DNA of 25,205 nucleotides from IMG/VR virus record IMGVR_UViG_2541047688_000007, positions 1-25,205 of that record; one strand, written 5' to 3'. Position 1 is the first letter of the stretch; each line of letters opens with the position of its first letter. The DNA is from a virus (Duplodnaviria; Heunggongvirae; Uroviricota; Caudoviricetes). The notes below the pieces were generated by a model. The model was not told the origin of the DNA. It saw only the letters and a program-made list of their open reading frames with translations, and made no database searches. Below, piece by piece: positions 3,055-15,978 of the stretch. The translations under genes and the position numbers were made by a program.

Positions 3055-3131
3055 TGGCGCGTTGTACTGGATTCGAACCAGTGACCGATTGCTTAGAAGG
3101 CAATTGCTCTGTCCGGCTGAGCTAACAACGC
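3055..3131 (-). tRNA. argO: tRNA-Arg (anticodon UCU)
   Basis: Hand-folded cloverleaf on minus strand: 7-bp acceptor GCGTTGT/ACAACGC, D-arm GCTC...GAGC, anticodon arm ATTGC-CTTCTAA-GCAAT (UCU), T-arm ACTGG-TTCGAAT-CCAGT, encoded CCA; symbol by analogy with the ileZ-argN-argO cluster of Stx/lambdoid phages. Confidence 0.8.
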
Positions 3132-3144
3132 AGGATACAGATAA

Positions 3145-3221
3145 TGGACCGCCTTCGGGGACCCGAACTCCGCGCAACCAGCTTCGAAGGCTGGCGCTCT
3201 TTCCTGATGAGCTAATGGCGG
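3145..3221 (-). tRNA. argN: tRNA-Arg (anticodon UCG), possibly degenerate
   Basis: Minus-strand cloverleaf with anticodon arm CCAGC-CTTCGAA-GCTGG (UCG) and encoded CCA, but one A-A mismatch in the acceptor stem and one A-C mismatch in the T-stem, G at T-loop position 58. Confidence 0.55.
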
Positions 3222-3228
3222 TATGTGA

Positions 3229-3304
3229 TGGTGGCCCTTGCTGGATTTGAACCAGCGACCTGGCGATTATGAGTCGCTCGCTCTCACCACTGAGCTAAAG
3301 GGCC
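3229..3304 (-). tRNA. ileZ: tRNA-Ile2 (anticodon CAU, lysidine-type; formally Met-like anticodon)
   Basis: Minus-strand cloverleaf GGCCCTT...AAGGGCC acceptor, anticodon loop CTCATAA (CAU), T-arm GCTGG-TTCAAAT-CCAGC, encoded CCA; very similar by eye to E. coli ileX-type tRNA. Confidence 0.8.
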
Positions 3305-10855: not shown

Positions 10856-11782
10856 TCAGAATGTCAATTTGTTACTGGATTTACCGAATTTGTCAGACAT
10901 GGCTCCCAGGCCAGCCAGGACATCGACCTGTCGCTGTCGCCCACCTCCGTGAGCGGCTGGCTGTTGCCAGTAATCTTCGAAGTGACGATCGGGTCCAAAG
11001 AACGTCGCAGCCTGCTTCACGAACTGTGTGCCGGTATTTCCTGTAGCACGTACCCAGGCGGCATACCGCTTCACGCCATCAAGCATGGTCTCCGGTTTTA
11101 TTCCCTCCCTGATACGGGCTTTCCAGGCTTTGAAGGCTGCAGATTTTGAATTGCCACCAGCACGTTTGGGATATTCCTGCCAGGCCTGTTCAAATTCCGG
11201 TGAATATTCCTGTCTGGCAGAACGCGCTGGTGCAGACGCGTCAGCGGATGCGCCAATATCTTGCGGTTCATGTTTTGAATTTACTGGTGGTTCATGTTTT
11301 AAACCTTGTGGATCTGGAGTCAGATTCTGAAGGGTCAAACGCGTATTTTTGCCAGAATCTGAAGGCTCAAACACGCCTGAACATACAGATTCTGACGGTT
11401 CAGATTTTGAAAGTTCAGAATCTGAAGGGTCACGTAATACTGAAAGTCTGCGCTGCTGTTTCAGTTCTGCAACCTTATCCCGCTCAGTTCTGGCAAGCTG
11501 CTCAAGCCGATCAGCATTCAGATGATAAAGATTGGACGTATTACGGTTACCTTTGCGGCGTGACTGACGCGTCAGCCAGCCATCAGCCTCCAGTTCGGAG
11601 ATTGCCGTTCTGACTGTACTTTCTCCCAATCCAAGCTGTCGACATATGGTTTCAACACCCGGGTAGCACACCCCGTCATCATTCGAATAATCAGCCAGGC
11701 GCGCCATAATCATCAGTTTTGCACCTTTGACGCCATATGCTGCGCATGCATCCCAGACATTACCGAGGATCTTGCTACTCAT
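10856..11782 (-). CDS. replication initiator, O-like (N-terminal HTH domain) containing internal iterons
   Basis: 308-aa ORF with N-terminal winged-helix region (DGVCYPGVETICRQLGLGESTVRTAISELEADGWL); position immediately upstream of DnaC/DnaB-like genes; internal direct repeats consistent with an ori embedded in the gene. Confidence 0.7.
   Translation of the reverse strand: MSSKILGNVWDACAAYGVKGAKLMIMARLADYSNDDGVCYPGVETICRQLGLGESTVRTAISELEADGWLTRQSRRKGNRNTSNLYHLNADRLEQLARTERDKVAELKQQRRLSVLRDPSDSELSKSEPSESVCSGVFEPSDSGKNTRLTLQNLTPDPQGLKHEPPVNSKHEPQDIGASADASAPARSARQEYSPEFEQAWQEYPKRAGGNSKSAAFKAWKARIREGIKPETMLDGVKRYAAWVRATGNTGTQFVKQAATFFGPDRHFEDYWQQPAAHGGGRQRQVDVLAGLGAMSDKFGKSSNKLTF
11266..11435. 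repeat. candidate iteron array / replication origin inside the O-like gene
   Basis: Two copies of GGTTCATGTTTT (11266-11300) followed by 4-5 imperfect direct repeats of CAGA(A/T)TCTGAAGG(G/C)TCA (11319-11433). Confidence 0.5.
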
Positions 11783-12003
11783 ACGACACCTCCCAGACGC
11801 TTAAACATTTTTCCGGACTGAAACGCCACCAGCGGGTAACTCAGGGTATAAGTACGCCCCTGCACCTGGCAGACAACCTTCTGACTTTCTGCATTGACCA
11901 GGCAAACCCGCAGAACGAGGCCGTTGCTGGTGGTAAACCACTGCCCCACTCGGGGGCAACGGTTGTATCGGTGATACAGGGAATTAACGATGTGGCGGAT
12001 CAT
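11779..12003 (-). CDS. hypothetical protein (74 aa)
   Basis: ORF with ATGA overlaps to both neighbours (translational coupling) in early operon; no recognised motif. Confidence 0.4.
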   Translation of the reverse strand: MIRHIVNSLYHRYNRCPRVGQWFTTSNGLVLRVCLVNAESQKVVCQVQGRTYTLSYPLVAFQSGKMFKRLGGVV

Positions 12004-12194
12004 GGACGCACCTCCGCCGTAGTTACGTATTTAACCGGGCTACCTTTCATTGAGATGGTTTCACACATCTCTGCCGCTTTCAGTTCCGCTGTTTTTCTGG
12101 ATTTATAGCGACGGTGCCAGACAGATACATCCGTGCGAACTGATACATCGTTTCTGTATTCCGTAGTGGAGATGATGATTTCGTAACTAATCAT
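12000..12194 (-). CDS. hypothetical protein (64 aa)
   Basis: ORF with ATGA overlaps to both neighbours; no recognised motif. Confidence 0.4.
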   Translation of the reverse strand: MISYEIIISTTEYRNDVSVRTDVSVWHRRYKSRKTAELKAAEMCETISMKGSPVKYVTTAEVRP

Positions 12195-13042
12195 GGGCGA
12201 ACCTCCTTGTCAGAACCATTCAGCCTGGAATCAACAAGTGCAGCGCCAAAAACAGCATCACCAACACGGTCGTACAGTTTGCTAGCCAGCGGAGATTCAA
12301 CGGCCTTAAGCATTGGATAAAGCTGGCTTGTCCAGATTTGATGGATTTCACGCAAATGCAGGTATACGCCTCTGGCGTTTCGTGCGACAGCTGACATATC
12401 AGACGTATCGGCACCTGATAAACTCTTCTCCATCAGGTTAAAGGCGTTGATGTATGCCTCTTTGAACCGGGCAGCACGTTTACCAGTGAAGCCCATGGCA
12501 AGGAACGCGAAGCCATCGCGGGTGATTTGATAGCAAGGTAGTTTGCGGCCTGATGCGTCGGTGTATTCACTTAACACAAAATTGTGTTCAGTAAATTCAG
12601 CGGAACATTCGAGGTTTCTAATTCTATCTAAAACCCGCTCATGCCGTTTAGTAAAGTAATTAGCTACTGCAAGAGATGTGGTGACAACGCGACCATTGAT
12701 AATCGTGATTTCAGGGTGAGATTGGGTTGGGAGAGTAGTCATGGTGACAGCCCCTATGTTGAATTCAATGAACTCACCACCAAGGCTTTCCACGACCATA
12801 TAGGTGGTGAGACGTACAGGGGTGGAAATACCGGTCAACATAGAACCCGGCCCAACCGAAGTTGGCCCTGCACGCCCCACCATAATTTGGGCGTAACGAT
12901 GCTCATGACACGAAAAAACCGCATGAGCGCGGTTGTGCTCTATATTGAATTTCGGGTTTCCACGCCCGGCACCCGCTTTATAAGGTGCAGAGACAGTGTA
13001 ACGTCCCGAAATTGCAGAATCAATATGCTGGTGGCGGATCAT
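12191..13042 (-). CDS. Rha-family phage regulatory protein (paralog 2)
   Basis: Core ITIINGRVVTTSLAVANYFTKRHERVLDRIRNLECSAEF...ITRDGFAFLAMGFTGKRAARFKEAYINAFNLME matches the Rha (Phage_pRha) pattern as I recall it; ~100-aa N-terminal extension whose first residues are shared with the upstream paralog. Confidence 0.7.
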   Translation of the reverse strand: MIRHQHIDSAISGRYTVSAPYKAGAGRGNPKFNIEHNRAHAVFSCHEHRYAQIMVGRAGPTSVGPGSMLTGISTPVRLTTYMVVESLGGEFIEFNIGAVTMTTLPTQSHPEITIINGRVVTTSLAVANYFTKRHERVLDRIRNLECSAEFTEHNFVLSEYTDASGRKLPCYQITRDGFAFLAMGFTGKRAARFKEAYINAFNLMEKSLSGADTSDMSAVARNARGVYLHLREIHQIWTSQLYPMLKAVESPLASKLYDRVGDAVFGAALVDSRLNGSDKEVRP

Positions 13043-13701
13043 AGGTGCACCTCCCGTTGATTACGACGGAACGCGGAGTGACCCTGGACGGTTTCAGCCT
13101 CATGGAATGCTTCAATACAGCTCTCGTAGTACCGCATTGTGCGCAGACTTAACCCAAGCTGAAGCATCATCAGACCATCAAGGGTGATGTAATAACCACG
13201 CAGGGAGTCACCGTAGATGTGATAAGTACCCGGTATGAAATTGCGGGTAAAAAACTCGCGTGAGCAGTTCAGATACTCGATTTTGTCGACGATGTTCTGG
13301 TGCATGCGCTTAAAGTGGCAGGCAACATGCAGGGAGAAAATAACGGCCTTGCCGTTGACAACTTCAATTTTGAGGAATGGGGAAGTTGGGACTGTAGCCA
13401 TGATGGCAGCCTCCGTTGACTGTGGAAAACTTCCACCACCGGAGCTGCGAAACTCACTGGTGGCAGACTGAACAGGGTTCGCAGTACCGGCGTCAACGGA
13501 GACCGGCGAGCCTTTCGGCTCCCCTGCCCAGCCCACCATAATTCTGGCGTGCGTGAGCGCGGACGATAAAAAAGACGCTGGCGCGTCATATATCGCCGTT
13601 GACAATTCCGGGCTGCGACCCCCGGCACCCGCTTTATAAGGTGCAGAGACAGTGTAACGTCCCGAAATTGCAGAATCAATATTTGGTCTTGAAATGATCA
13701 T
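13039..13701 (-). CDS. Rha-family phage regulatory protein (paralog 1, divergent)
   Basis: Core EVVNGKAVIFSLHVACHFKRMHQNIVDKIEYLNCSREF...ITLDGLMMLQLGL resembles the Rha domain; N-terminal DSAISGRYTVSAPYKAGAG shared with the downstream paralog. Confidence 0.6.
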   Translation of the reverse strand: MIISRPNIDSAISGRYTVSAPYKAGAGGRSPELSTAIYDAPASFLSSALTHARIMVGWAGEPKGSPVSVDAGTANPVQSATSEFRSSGGGSFPQSTEAAIMATVPTSPFLKIEVVNGKAVIFSLHVACHFKRMHQNIVDKIEYLNCSREFFTRNFIPGTYHIYGDSLRGYYITLDGLMMLQLGLSLRTMRYYESCIEAFHEAETVQGHSAFRRNQREVHL

Positions 13702-13785
13702 ATAGCTGCTGATATCTTTAGAACTGTTCTTGGATGTTTCGGAGCCGTTTTATGCGAAACAGCTCCCCGTTATTGATGTTGAGTG

Positions 13786-13810
13786 AGCCGGGTTACTCCC
13801 GGCTTTTTTT
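13786..13810 (+). terminator. rho-independent terminator-like hairpin, plus-strand oriented
   Basis: 7-bp stem AGCCGGG/CCCGGCT with 5-nt loop followed by T7; T-run abuts the stop codon of the minus-strand Rha gene. Confidence 0.35.
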
Positions 13811-14517
13811 CATCGCTGCCAACCAATAACCTGAAATAACCCCATTTTCGGGTGATACCAGCGAGTCCCTCGCGGTTCTGCTTCCTCCATAACCCGATAA
13901 AAAGCAGCCATAAACGGTTCCACAGCAACAATTGCGCGACGTGACAACAATCCGTCCGGCGTCATGAACTCATGTGTGTCTGTAGGAATTTGATAGGCGT
14001 TCACCAGATTGCGGCATTTATCATCTGACAAACCGGTTTTTGCTTTCAGTTGGCGATATCCGGCATAGCCCTCACGAATAGTGCCCTTTTTAATTTGCTC
14101 GACTGTTTCAGCAACGTGGCTGACTTTTTCTTCCACCTGAGTGATCCGTTTCTGTTGGCGAACGGCTTCAAGAGCCATCGCGGCAACCATTTCGATTTCG
14201 CTCATTGGCTTACGGATCTGTTCTTCCAGTTCGCGCCAGCGATCTACCAGGCGAGCTGTGAATTCAGGACAGAGCTGTGCGACGACAATGATGCTGTCGC
14301 GCTTACCTTGTTCGCCTTCGAAGATGTAAGCACCTACATTTCGTTTTAATCCTAAGTTGTTGATTATTTCGAAATTCGCCATTGGCGCACTTCGAATAAT
14401 CCCCTTATCCATGAGCCTTTCAATGCTGCGCTTAACATCTTTGTGTTGGCTGCCCACCAACTCTGCGATTTCAAGGCTGGTCATGGATGCTTTGCCGTTA
14501 AAAATTGCGGTGTTCAC
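13810..14517 (-). CDS. Rha-family regulatory protein / antirepressor-like (paralog 3)
   Basis: N-terminal MTSLEIAELVGSQHKDVKRSIERL fits the Rha N-terminal pattern; start placed at GTG 14515-14517 (AAGGAG SD at 6 nt); ATG alternatives at 14521-14523 and 14557-14559. Confidence 0.6.
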   Translation of the reverse strand: MNTAIFNGKASMTSLEIAELVGSQHKDVKRSIERLMDKGIIRSAPMANFEIINNLGLKRNVGAYIFEGEQGKRDSIIVVAQLCPEFTARLVDRWRELEEQIRKPMSEIEMVAAMALEAVRQQKRITQVEEKVSHVAETVEQIKKGTIREGYAGYRQLKAKTGLSDDKCRNLVNAYQIPTDTHEFMTPDGLLSRRAIVAVEPFMAAFYRVMEEAEPRGTRWYHPKMGLFQVIGWQR

Positions 14518-14636
14518 TGCCATCTCCTTACGGATAAATTCTTTTAAGATTCCGCACATTCGTACTTATTGGTGCCGAACCTTCCTTCAGTTATCCTTTT
14601 GATCCCTATAAACAAAAGAACCAAAGGAGGTTCGAC

Positions 14637-14930
14637 ATGAAAGTTCAGGCCGTTGGTTTATTCTGGTTTCGCGATGCGATTCAGTATCATGAGCTCAAAA
14701 ATATTTTTACTGATGCTGATGTGCTCTCCGACAGTTACACCGAGTGGAAACACGACGCTGAAAAATTGATTAAGCGTGTCGAAAGAGGCGGGCAACGAGT
14801 TATTAAAGTTGAAGCGGATACAGCCGAGTTCATCGCTTGGTGTACAAGCGAAGGCATTGGAATCAATGCCGAAGGTAGAATGCAGTTCGCATCCTTTAAG
14901 GCTTACCAACAACTTCTCAGCGAACGCTAA
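14637..14930 (+). CDS. hypothetical protein (97 aa)
   Basis: ATG preceded by strong AAAGGAGG SD at ~7 nt; protein-like composition; overlaps an alternative minus-strand ORF (14658..15011), so only one of the two is likely real. Confidence 0.4.
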   Translation: MKVQAVGLFWFRDAIQYHELKNIFTDADVLSDSYTEWKHDAEKLIKRVERGGQRVIKVEADTAEFIAWCTSEGIGINAEGRMQFASFKAYQQLLSER

Positions 14931-15210: not shown

Positions 15211-15321
15211 TCTTTAGTCTCACACCAGATACTTTGTTATCCAACGATGTTAACCACAGGAATCCAAAGTATCAAGAAATTCTGTTACTTTAGTATCAAC
15301 AGCCATGAGAGGAGAAGAAAA
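15211..15321. promoter_or_regulatory. immunity-region operator/promoter zone (divergent PR/PRM-like)
   Basis: Intergenic region between the cro-position ORF and the cI-like gene; ATACTTTG (15229-15236) and its inverted copy CAAAGTAT (15265-15272), plus imperfect 26-bp palindrome 15266-15291. Confidence 0.4.
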
Positions 15322-15978
15322 ATGAAGTCTTTAGGTGAACGTCTCATCAACGCACGGCAAAAAGCTGGGTTAACACAAGATGCGTTGGCTAAAAAAGCTG
15401 GGATCACCAGAGTTGCAATCAGTAAAGCCGAGCAAGGCCTTACAAAAAGTTTCAACGGTGACACCCTTTTTAAAGTTGCAGCTGCACTGCGGTGTTCACC
15501 GCAGTGGCTTCAGAACGGAGATGAAAAAGATAAGCATTGGGAAAATAATGTTAAGAGCTGCCCACAGAGAGACACAGCACACTCTTACCCTGTAATTAAC
15601 TGGGTTCAGGCAGGATTATTCGCAACTTCTGGTGATGACTACAACATGTATGATCAGGATAATTGGAGGCATTCTGTAAAATACGCTGGTGAGAGGGGGT
15701 TCTGGCTGGAAGTGCACGGAGACTCAATGACTTCGCCCGTAGGAATAACATTTCCTGAAGGAATGTCGATCCTTGTCAACCCAGATAAAGAAGTTTTTTC
15801 AGGGTGTTACGTCATCGCCAGAAAAAAATCTACCAATGAAGCAACATTCAAAAAATATATTTCTGACATGGGAAAGGCGTTTCTAAAGCCCCTTAATCCA
15901 CAATATCCAATCATAGAAATGGACAATGATTGCGAAATAGTAGGTGTTGTGGTTGATGCCAGGTGGGATATTTTCTGA
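15322..15978 (+). CDS. CI-like prophage repressor (XRE HTH + LexA/S24 peptidase domain)
   Basis: ATG at 15322 with GAGAGGAG SD; N-terminal HTH (LTQDALAKKAGITRVAISKAEQG), C-terminal S24 autopeptidase with GDSM Ser motif and downstream Lys (ATFKKY); track ORF from 15247 over-extends. Confidence 0.85.
   Translation: MKSLGERLINARQKAGLTQDALAKKAGITRVAISKAEQGLTKSFNGDTLFKVAAALRCSPQWLQNGDEKDKHWENNVKSCPQRDTAHSYPVINWVQAGLFATSGDDYNMYDQDNWRHSVKYAGERGFWLEVHGDSMTSPVGITFPEGMSILVNPDKEVFSGCYVIARKKSTNEATFKKYISDMGKAFLKPLNPQYPIIEMDNDCEIVGVVVDARWDIF

Follow-up and report, generated by a model that had tools for sequence, protein, structure and literature searches.

In the analysed stretch of 25,205 nucleotides (the window), three Rha-type open reading frames lie in tandem on the minus strand: ORF A at 12191-13042 (283 aa), ORF B at 13039-13701 (220 aa) and ORF C at 13810-14559 (249 aa). 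The element carrying them is an E. coli lambdoid prophage. An earlier note, made from the letters alone, had described the three genes and a shared N-terminus of the two long ORFs A and B. Both do open with ...IDSAISGRYTVSAPYKAGAG, and both have, as it stated, approximately 100 codons ahead of the Rha core; the Rha match begins near residues 121-123. Its assignment to the Rha family was upheld by the Phage_pRha HMM for ORFs A (105.4 bits) and C (34.3 bits) but not for ORF B, which scores 27.9 bits, under the cut-off of 29.9. What it called low-complexity N-terminal extensions are an isrK-type leader RNA and a C4 antisense RNA, in which strong RNA-RNA covariation is found and a coding-type substitution pattern is not. 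The protein-coding features are as follows:

12191..12742, minus strand: cargo A, Rha-family protein of 183 aa (MTTLPTQSHPEI...), pRha 105.4 bits
13039..13401, minus strand: cargo B, short Rha-like protein of 120 aa (MATVPTSPFLKI...), PHROG 995/821/518, Rha-like or transcriptional regulator
13810..14559, minus strand: Rha-C, third Rha/Ant-type gene, pRha 34.3 bits (cut-off 29.9), PHROG 63 'anti-repressor Ant' 168 bits
12000..12194, minus strand: orf64, small ORF travelling with module A, PHROG 7046 over its full length, function unknown

Cargo A also matches TIGR02681 (100.8 bits, cut-off 45.95) and PHROG 821/995/518/373, annotated as Rha-like or anti-repressor. Cargo B is under both cut-offs (pRha 27.9 bits against 29.9; TIGR02681 37.9 bits against 45.95). 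The cores of the two cargo proteins are nevertheless clear homologs (37% identity, E = 2e-22), and a cargo of 120-122 aa, like cargo B, recurs in many phages. Rha-C passes the Rha-family cut-off in Pfam (PF09669) only. Its true start is likely ATG 14523, which has an AAGGAG Shine-Dalgarno sequence (SD) and is used by RefSeq (CDS of 714 nt). It lacks an RNA cassette; a search of its upstream region with C4 models gave no match. The product of orf64 has 64 aa, and the start of the gene overlaps the Rha-A stop (ATGA).

In phage P1, the a' and b' sequences of the c4 RNA pair with upstream a1/b1 and downstream a2/b2 sites. Corresponding elements precede cargo A and cargo B. On the minus strand, both modules have the order promoter-like site, IsrK-type leader, C4 and Rha-family cargo gene, with the following RNA parts:

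13568..13644, minus strand: module B isrK-type leader RNA, Rfam isrK 58.7 bits (gathering 50)
13456..13543, minus strand: module B C4 antisense RNA, Rfam C4 78.8 bits (gathering 45), own model R1 90.8 bits
13410..13451, minus strand: module B target region, with b2 TTCGCAG 13451-13445, a small hairpin and a2 GTCAACGGAGG 13420-13410
12912..12988, minus strand: module A isrK-type leader RNA, Rfam isrK 61.6 bits (gathering 50)
12800..12887, minus strand: module A C4 antisense RNA, Rfam C4 82.4 bits (gathering 45), own model R1 98.8 bits
12751..12793, minus strand: module A target region, with b2 GTGGAAA 12793-12787, a small hairpin and a2 TCAACATAG 12762-12754

Each cassette consists of a 77-nt leader (b1, a1 and an intrinsic terminator), an 88-nt C4 fold, and b2 and a2 downstream. 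The C4 fold exposes a' in a hairpin loop and b' in the 3' joint; a2 overlaps the SD of the Rha core ORF. In the module B leader, b1 (TCGCAG, 13618-13613) lies in a hairpin loop, a1 (GTCAACGG, 13603-13596) is single-stranded, and the terminator scan places a terminator hairpin at 13587-13574, followed by a T run. The module B C4 has its a' loop at 13502-13491 (UCUCCGUUGACG; a' is CUCCGUUGAC) and b' at 13484-13478 (CUGCGAA). Its a2 overlaps the SD GGAGG, 8 nt ahead of ATG 13401, and in the minimum-energy fold of the full leader a' pairs in cis with a2/SD. The module A leader carries b1 (GTGGAAA, 12963-12957), a1 (TCAATATAGA, 12948-12939) and, in the same scan, an intrinsic terminator at 12934-12917 with a T run behind it. 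Its C4 has the a' loop at 12846-12835 (GUUCUAUGUUGA; a' is CUAUGUUGA) and b' at 12828-12822 (UUUCCAC), and a2 runs into the SD GGGG (12754-12751), 8 nt ahead of ATG 12742. The hairpin-1 sequences of the two C4 copies are entirely unlike, yet each forms a perfect 5-bp stem.

Both leaders reach the gathering threshold of isrK (RF01394). Both C4 RNAs reach that of RF01695 and are thus members of the c4 antisense RNA motif (Weinberg et al. 2010, PMC2864571). The leader is the functional counterpart of the a1/b1 target motif c4-a1b1 (RF03163, PMC2864571), but that model has no match at gathering in the window, and formally the leaders are not members.

Upstream of each leader, the promoter-like site lies within a repeat:

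12995..13023, minus strand: module A promoter-like site, -35 TTGATT 13023-13018, 17-nt spacer, -10 TACACT 13000-12995
13651..13679, minus strand: module B promoter-like site, -35 TTGATT 13679-13674, 17-nt spacer, -10 TACACT 13656-13651
12966..13026, unstranded: 61-bp repeat copy 1, module A promoter-like region and leader nt 1-23
13622..13682, unstranded: 61-bp repeat copy 2, module B promoter-like region and leader nt 1-23

The sites of both modules score 8/12, below the scan cut-off of 9/12. The first base of the module B leader is 7 nt downstream of its site. The geometry before the leader (-35, 17 nt, -10, 6 nt) is kept by five unrelated promoter sequences in other modules, and the Gifsy-1 isrK promoter has been demonstrated experimentally (PMC4825925). 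The exact 61-bp repeat reported in the earlier note is present twice, at 12966-13026 and 13622-13682 in plus-strand coordinates (2 matches in 0/100 shuffles), although the second copy had been placed 2 nt off, at 13624-13684. Self-comparison of the window widens the repeat to 79 nt at 94% identity (12948-13026 / 13604-13682), with a spacing of 656 nt. The repeat comprises the cassette's promoter-like hexamers and the first 23 nt, or predicted 5' hairpin, of the leader. An identical 61-mer is found in single-module phages; it is therefore a conserved functional block and no sign of recent duplication.

The repeat had been taken as a trace of duplication by recombination. Against this, the two modules are old paralogs, with cargo proteins 37% identical and antisense specificities that differ, and the 61-mer also occurs in single-module loci. 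Identity is only 37% in the cores but 100% in the promoter block, a mosaic pattern that does not point to a recent duplication. Two copies of a gene-junction repeat mark how module A was acquired:

13031..13054, minus strand: gene-junction repeat copy 1 (GGAGGTGCACCTATGATCCGCCAC), holding the Rha-B stop, SD and ATG 13042; repeat family D3
11992..12015, minus strand: gene-junction repeat copy 2 (GGAGGTGCGTCCATGATCCGCCAC), at the orf64 stop / orf74 start

When the locus is aligned to a single-module Stx2 phage (L002), from which orf64 is missing, the junction at copy 1 is the insertion point of module A and orf64. Judged from these alignments, module A and orf64 entered together as a cassette at a repeated SD-ATGA gene junction and did not arise by local tandem duplication. 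A recent tandem duplication was rejected on the divergence of the cargo cores, the single-module occurrences of the 61-mer and this mapped junction. The potential for repeat-mediated rearrangement that the note raised is borne out; related phages have arrays of one, two or three modules, often with the 656-nt period. Phage phiP27, a candidate second two-module phage from its annotation, was discarded, as Rfam finds only one isrK-C4 module in it.

The two modules differ in predicted pairing. Cognate duplexes reach -18.8 (a':a2) and -9.3 kcal/mol (b':b2) in module B, and -12.1 (a':a2), -15.1 (a':a1) and -8.3 kcal/mol (b':b2) in module A. Against the target region of the other module, C4-B gives -7.9 (a') and -6.4 kcal/mol (b'), and C4-A gives -6.7 (a') and -7.5 kcal/mol (b'). 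For a' the overall ranges are -12 to -19 kcal/mol for cognate and -6.7 to -8.0 kcal/mol for cross-module pairs. The contrast is weaker for b' (-8.0 to -9.3 versus -4.3 to -7.5 kcal/mol), and the b' of module A, at -7.5 cross-module versus -8.3 kcal/mol cognate, gives no clean separation. Each C4 is predicted to pair well only with the sites of its own module.

Covariation was assessed in 72 unique related modules. Compensatory changes are found in 6/7 pairs of b1:b' (97.4% paired), 9/11 pairs of a':a2 (92.3% paired) and 8/10 pairs of a1:a' (88.6% paired). C4 hairpin 1 is compensatory in 4/5 pairs, and in the outer helix pairing is 99.9%, 3 pairs showing changes in both partners; slid-register controls are 27-47% paired. 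The formal pair count excludes b2, whose register in alignment A1 is broken by a real 1-3-nt indel; the support for b2 includes a permutation test of cognate against random assignment. This test covers 20 distinct a' and 8 distinct b' sequences, and for each of the four site pairs cognate pairing exceeded random reassignment in 10000/10000 permutations.

A natural swap is seen in E. coli SCU-387 (99.5% identity over 2621 nt). Its 15 differences are all located in 13645-13417, and 10 form a concerted change of a1 (TCA>CAT), a' (TGA>ATG) and a2 (TCA>CAT). Three independent mutations are not needed to explain it: the differences are confined to 229 nt and leave b1/b'/b2 intact, so that a single short recombination tract could account for them if the donor shared the b code. 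Within 13 arrays, no two modules have both a' and b' in common, where, by an estimate based on the type frequencies, approximately 10% of random pairs would be expected to match. Selection for unlike specificities within arrays is not significant and is not claimed; several of the 13 arrays are of the same lineage. Because their a' and b' sequences differ, the two switches at this locus would act independently, both of one another and of those in related prophages.

Taken together, the region most probably holds two tandem copies, with unlike specificities, of the known phage regulatory cassette represented by P1 c4 and Gifsy-1 IsrK. Promoter use, termination, C4 processing and repression at this locus are assigned by homology to these precedents. 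On that basis, most transcripts would stop at the leader terminator and yield a short IsrK-like RNA. C4 would come from transcripts that read through, and would be either released by processing or active in cis. It would pair with b2/a2 and hide the ribosome-binding site, so that the Rha cargo stays off. The short leader RNA, which mimics the target through b1/a1, could titrate C4 and turn the cargo on.

The Salmonella Gifsy-1 locus isrK-orf45(STnc1160)-anrP has the same RNA anatomy. C4 lies over orf45/STnc1160, b1/a1 lie in the leader, the leader terminator is read through, and the conserved AUG at the C4 5' edge is the first AUG of orf45. In our scan this locus gave isrK, c4-a1b1 (RF03163, 48.1 bits, cut-off 46.7) and C4 matches, with a2 at the anrP SD. 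Terminator read-through and an approximately 80-nt processed RNA (STnc1160) have been shown there, IsrK pairing has been validated, and IsrK in trans activates the cargo 100-fold (PMC4825925). Unlike Gifsy-1, the prophage described here has two tandem cassettes with unlike a'/b'. AnrP has an ORF6N domain whereas the cargo here is pRha, with no homology to AnrP detectable by BLASTP (E = 3.6). In Gifsy-1, orf45 is separate and ends in an AUGA overlap with the cargo start; here the C4-edge AUG and the cargo ATG share a frame, with no stop between. The Gifsy-1 locus is downstream of Q, and the present one lies in the early-right region, with cro on one side and the replication genes on the other. 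The immI region of P1/P7 (Citron & Schuster 1990, cited in PMC8198154) is an operon of c4 antisense RNA, icd and ant1/2. As is predicted here, C4 comes from the same transcript as its target and blocks an antirepressor-type cargo, and specificity varies between related phages. The present cassettes differ from P1 immI in that no icd-like small ORF lies between C4 and cargo, a2 overlaps the cargo's own SD, the cargo is of another family (pRha, a putative antirepressor), and the leader belongs to the IsrK-type sRNAs and carries a terminator of its own. The host element also differs, being a lambdoid prophage with a LexA-like CI repressor, not P1's C1, and having two cassettes in one phage.

The reading implied by the earlier note takes ORF A (283 aa) and ORF B (220 aa) for true two-domain proteins ('Ash' plus Rha) from a recent tandem duplication, with a shared N-terminus encoded by the repeat and with incidental RNA-family matches. 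Pfam PF10554 (Phage_ASH), whose name 'Ash protein family' we take to be linked to satellite phage P4, does match both extensions above its cut-off of 26 (35.7 and 59.5 bits). The frame is open, and RefSeq annotates the long ORFs, taking ATG 13042 as the start of ORF A. However, the annotated starts 13042 and 13701 are upstream of the modules' own predicted transcription start, and the DNA matched by Phage_ASH is isrK and C4, which covaries as RNA. Third-codon-position bias is absent from the RNA region, unlike the Rha core, and the synonymous fraction is 0.15-0.16 versus 0.26-0.29 in the core; the extension peptide is therefore not conserved as a protein. Entropy and synonymous fraction were used here, the codon-position count of variable columns being uninformative because the cores are too diverged. 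The same extension precedes unrelated protein families, and its peptide matches the N-termini of five different PHROG families. Four Rfam matches above gathering, compensatory changes in the C4 helices and in three distinct site pairs (unexplained by a protein domain), the natural three-site swap, the mosaic identity of core and promoter block and the mapped insertion junction all stand against two-domain proteins. This reading is largely refuted already and very improbable; the N-terminal 100 codons of the long ORFs, annotated as 'ash family protein' and 283-aa 'Rha family protein', appear to be owed to RNA genes. It is also improbable, though less so, that the C4-like RNA acts mainly through premature transcription termination, as P4 CI RNA does at seqA/seqC, and not by blocking translation. 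The P4 CI RNA is a related processed antisense RNA with targets (seqA/seqC) on both sides (PMC4825925), a1/b1 lie immediately before the leader terminator, and many modules in the genome scan with an approximately 150-aa cargo of unknown family may be P4-like satellites. P4 CI acts by transcription termination, whereas a2 here overlaps the SD at a fixed 8 nt from the ATG in both modules and in relatives, a geometry to be expected if translation is blocked. Translation in Gifsy-1 is affected far more strongly (over 100-fold) than transcription (8-fold) (PMC4825925).

The reading frame across the RNA region is a separate matter. Among the 64 unique Rha-cargo modules taken from viral contigs, none has a stop in the cargo frame (frame 0). 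Stops do occur in frames 1 and 2, at 16 and 18 positions respectively; most of these positions are polymorphic, and many lie within a'/a1/a2. Across diverse genera the frame is open through the leader in 7/7 Rha-cargo modules versus 10/56 with other cargos (Fisher p = 3.5e-5). A purely non-coding leader would not predict this absence of stops. Because every Rha-cargo relative keeps this frame open, the RNA region may be translated to some extent, and as the frame lacks protein-like conservation, ribosome read-through itself may be selected. A dual use, in which the RNA switches operate and the RNA region is also deliberately kept within the translated frame of Rha-cargo modules, is a real possibility, although we do not favour it. 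Ribosomes on long transcripts from an upstream early promoter would arrive from the preceding gene (SD-ATGA junction, 13042), or enter at the conserved AUG at the C4 5' edge (12883 / 13539). They would traverse leader, C4 and a2/SD, and the product would be a Rha protein with an N-terminal extension. Control by C4 would thereby be circumvented, and the translationally coupled operon would be left with no untranslated gap. Besides the open frame, both indels between subgroups are of 3 nt, an in-frame ATG is found directly 5' of the -35 in 37/64 modules, in many cases with an SD and in overlap with the stop of the preceding gene, and another 15 modules are fused in frame to the upstream ORF. In Gifsy-1, orf45, which has the same C4-edge AUG, was detected by SPA-tag and is required for cargo translation, and a Shigella version fused to anrP (287 aa) is reported (PMC4825925). 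On the other side, the peptide is not conserved, as set out above, the module B ATG 13701 lacks an SD and follows a 108-nt gap, and an intrinsic terminator lies within the frame. Long open frames can also arise without function: small-cargo modules have a 148-codon open frame with no family match. That long ORF, in the C4-AUG frame, was rejected as cargo, the SD-linked 76-aa ORF (Derepression family) being the real one.

With two tandem cassettes of unlike specificities, the locus is a new example of a known mechanism in which the cassette is present twice. In RefSeq, Pfam ('Ash protein family') and several PHROG families, two small-RNA genes are entered in translated form as if they were protein, and this mis-annotation touches more than a thousand E. 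coli prophage loci (a match in 1347/5426 complete genomes). The family is a natural RNA-specificity set of 20 a' and 8 b' variants, assorting independently and each matched at three sites, and is useful for studies of antisense-specificity evolution and as parts for synthetic regulation. The stop-free frame over RNA genes, specific to Rha cargos, could reveal how a reading frame is accommodated alongside an RNA switch and by what route a phage might escape the antisense control that it encodes. A joint interpretation, in which lambdoid Rha-cargo IsrK-C4 cassettes combine a selected continuous translated frame, two expression regimes and array RNA 'immunity barcodes', is offered only tentatively and is rather unlikely. 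If it is true, cargo in the lysogen would be limited by C4 on transcripts from the cassette's own promoter, and after induction it would be C4-independent, driven by ribosomes on read-through transcripts. Stacked arrays of two or three modules, with a'/b' codes exchanged by short recombination tracts, would then act combinatorially among co-resident prophages. Located next to cI/cro, a pair of independent switches on antirepressor-like genes could have an effect on induction and on cross-talk among co-resident Stx-type and other lambdoid prophages.

Two tandem minus-strand modules, A and B, each consist of a promoter-like site, an isrK-type leader, a C4 antisense RNA and a Rha cargo gene. The 61-bp direct repeat described in the earlier note is present twice as an exact match, at 12966-13026 and 13622-13682 (none of 100 shuffles had two matches); that observation is confirmed by the sequence, although the second copy lies 2 nt away from where it had been placed. 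The copies are spaced 656 nt apart, and the repeat can be extended to 79 nt at 94% identity. The same note saw three tandem Rha genes with scope for repeat-mediated rearrangement, and this is accepted. Pfam Phage_pRha matches ORF A (residues 121-206, 105.4 bits) and the third gene, Rha-C (residues 26-113, 34.3 bits), but the match to ORF B (residues 123-203, 27.9 bits) is slightly below the 29.9 cut-off. The note was wrong on the nature of the repeat, read there as a shared N-terminus, and of the low-complexity extensions. The repeat spans the promoter-like region and the first 23 nucleotides of the leader, and the roughly 100 codons before each Rha core are occupied by four isrK and C4 RNAs. 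The isrK-C4 pair of module A recurs 656 nt upstream as that of module B.

Minus-strand features of the modules and Rha genes (ORFs from ORF calling on the window; RNAs from an Rfam scan of the window at gathering thresholds; terminators from a terminator scan, which found both; Rha core starts read from the sequence)
13810-14559, minus strand: Rha-C
13039-13701, minus strand: ORF B
13644-13568, minus strand: isrK of module B, 58.7 bits
13587-13574, minus strand: leader terminator of module B
13543-13456, minus strand: C4 antisense RNA of module B, 78.8 bits
13401, minus strand: Rha core start ATG of module B
12191-13042, minus strand: ORF A
12988-12912, minus strand: isrK of module A, 61.6 bits
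12934-12917, minus strand: leader terminator of module A
12887-12800, minus strand: C4 antisense RNA of module A, 82.4 bits
12742, minus strand: Rha core start ATG of module A

The Pfam Phage_ASH match spans the same DNA as isrK and C4; RefSeq names for the long ORFs are "ash family protein" and "Rha family phage regulatory protein".

Both modules read alike. The promoter-like site is TTGATT, a 17-nt spacer and TACACT, with leader base 1 a further 7 nt on. It scored 8/12 in a promoter scan, below the tool's cut-off; the geometry (-35, 17 nt, -10, 6 nt) recurs in other modules with five unrelated promoter sequences. The leader has a 5' hairpin and a second hairpin with b1 in its loop; a1 is single-stranded and precedes a GC hairpin with a T run behind it. 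C4 exposes a' as a 12-nt hairpin loop and b' as a 7-nt joint. In the target region, b2 is followed by a small hairpin and by a2, which runs into the Shine-Dalgarno (SD) sequence 8 nt before the ATG; a1 and a2 are complementary to a', and b1 and b2 to b'. In predicted folds of the full leader, a' of module B is paired in cis with a2/SD, and module A retains the C4 fold. The module B hairpin between b2 and a2 (13430-13417, GTGGAAgtTTTCCAC) holds the module A b' sequence (TTTCCAC) plus its complement, which could be cross-talk between modules or coincidence. On the plus strand between Rha-C and module B (13785-13805), the terminator scan found a hairpin that resembles a terminator and has a T run; it would halt transcription antisense to both modules.

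This layout is also that of the Gifsy-1 genome, which has isrK, Rfam c4-a1b1 ("a1, b1 targets of C4 antisense RNA") and C4, with a2 at the anrP SD. In Gifsy-1, IsrK activates anrP translation over 100-fold in trans, its pairing is proven by compensatory mutations, its terminator permits partial read-through, and the locus yields a processed RNA of ~80 nt (PMC4825925). The published orf45/STnc1160 of Gifsy-1 (34131-34214, minus strand) is located where Rfam places a C4 antisense RNA (69 bits). The discussion of PMC4825925 likens STnc1160 to P4 CI RNA; a search of that paper for 'phage P1' gave no match. The founding example is the P1 immI operon, with c4, icd and ant1/2, in the part of PMC8198154 that cites Citron & Schuster (1990); PMC2864571 catalogues the c4 and c4-a1b1 motifs. 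Given this shared layout, the window modules are members of a known mechanism. They differ from both Gifsy-1 and P1 immI in being two cassettes in tandem, in sitting between cro and the replication genes, and in having no separate icd or orf45 ORF. Their cargo is pRha, whereas AnrP is an ORF6N protein without detectable relation to it. Among the comparison loci, the cassette precedes proteins of the pRha, ORF6N, Bro-N and "Derepression" families and of two unknown ones. In genome contigs (L124-L243), many C4-like modules from Enterobacterales, and a few from Pseudomonas, stand in front of one of two proteins without a Pfam family, a conserved one of ~150 aa (MATIPTQTHPLL...) or one of ~64 aa; such modules may be P4-like satellite elements.

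The two modules have different antisense specificities. Module A has a' = CUAUGUUGA and b' = UUUCCAC; module B has a' = CUCCGUUGAC and b' = CUGCGAA. Duplex energies for a' are -12.1 to -18.8 kcal/mol for cognate pairs versus -6.7 to -8.0 across modules; those for b' are less separated (-8.0 to -9.3 versus -4.3 to -7.5 kcal/mol). Relatives collected with a pattern fixing only the C4 stems came from 119 viral contigs and represent 28 distinct (a', b') types. The alignment used to count pairs contained 72 unique modules.

Covariation of paired sites (pairs compensatory on both sides; alignment cells paired)
b1:b', 6/7 pairs; 97.4%
a':a2, 9/11 pairs; 92.3%
a1:a', 8/10 pairs; 88.6%
C4 hairpin 1, 4/5 pairs; 99.4%
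Control, slid registers; 27-47%

An indel kept b2 out of the formal count; its 7 nt are perfectly complementary in 28/28 types. For all four site pairs, cognate pairing energy is better than 10000/10000 random reassignments. The clearest single result is a swap in E. coli SCU-387, which is 99.5% identical over 2621 nt, with all 15 differences inside 13645-13417. Ten of these change a1 (TCA>CAT), a' (TGA>ATG) and a2 (TCA>CAT) together; since b1, b' and b2 are unchanged, one short recombination tract would be enough. The 13430-13417 hairpin is also changed in this allele.

The cargo cores of A and B are 37% identical, against full identity in the promoter and leader block, and the same 61-mer is found in single-module loci. 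An Stx2a phage has module B only, its stop overlapping the start of a 77-aa ORF with 92% identity to orf74 of the window. A 24-nt SD-ATGATCCGCCAC junction occurs twice in the window (13054-13031 and 12015-11992), on either side of module A and the small ORF that travels with it, orf64. The duplicated junction and the module-B-only phage therefore show that module A came in as a cassette where two genes meet; by sequence comparison, ATG 13042 is a duplicate of the start of orf74. With a C4 model made in this analysis, at least two C4 copies are found in 13/119 viral loci. No modules within any of these 13 arrays share both a' and b', a result that is statistically not significant. One locus (L014, 9709-11108, minus strand) has three tandem isrK-C4 modules with a 656-nt period, all differing from one another in both a' and b'. 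In another (L026, 3626-3716, plus strand), a second C4 copy (55 bits), far more diverged and with another loop length, lies 360 nt past the first.

An unexpected finding is the open frame across the RNA region. Every unique Rha-cargo module (64/64) has a conserved AUG at the C4 5' edge (the first AUG of orf45 in Gifsy-1) in frame with the cargo ATG, and no stop interrupts the cargo frame between the beginning of the leader and that ATG. The other two frames do contain stops, at 16 positions in frame 1 and 18 in frame 2, mostly polymorphic and many within a', a1 or a2. In 37 modules an in-frame ATG lies just 5' of the -35; it often has an SD and overlaps the preceding gene's stop. A further 15 modules are fused to the upstream ORF, and ATG 13701 of module B has no SD. 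In an independent scan of species-representative genomes, the frame is open through the leader in 7/7 unique Rha-cargo modules versus 10/56 with other cargos (p = 3.5e-5). Codon-position entropy in the RNA region lacks the third-position enrichment of the Rha core: summed over positions 1/2/3 in two subgroups, it is 27.5/26.1/22.1 and 32.8/38.3/37.7 (synonymous fraction 0.15-0.16), against 82.8/78.4/101.8 and 88.1/73.8/126.9 (0.26-0.29) in the core. The extension peptide is probably not a conserved domain, but the passage of ribosomes may be selected. Possible reasons are that a translationally coupled early operon is kept continuous, or that C4 is bypassed on read-through transcripts.

A 97-aa gene with a strong SD and a full-length PHROG 4753 match lies on the plus strand (14637-14930) between a cro-like ORF (15210-15001) and Rha-C; this inverted gene therefore separates Rha-C from cro. 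Overlapping it is a 117-aa minus-strand ORF that matches no family and is probably spurious. A CI-like repressor is encoded at 15247-15978. At 11320-11432, a ~18-nt unit (TCAGATTCTGAAGGGTCA) occurs five times, with several inverted repeats among the copies, inside an HTH_36 replication-protein-like ORF (10856-11782), where it encodes an S/E/D-rich repeat. These may be origin iterons within an O-like gene, an arrangement known from lambda. Further downstream and in the same orientation, Rfam places an STnc100 sRNA (139 bits) and three tRNA genes (2780-2979 and 3058-3304, minus strand), a stretch which we take to resemble the region after the Q antiterminator of Stx-type lambdoid phages.

The modules are of value mainly for correcting annotation, as a clean natural collection of antisense specificities that co-vary, and for raising dual coding as a testable question.
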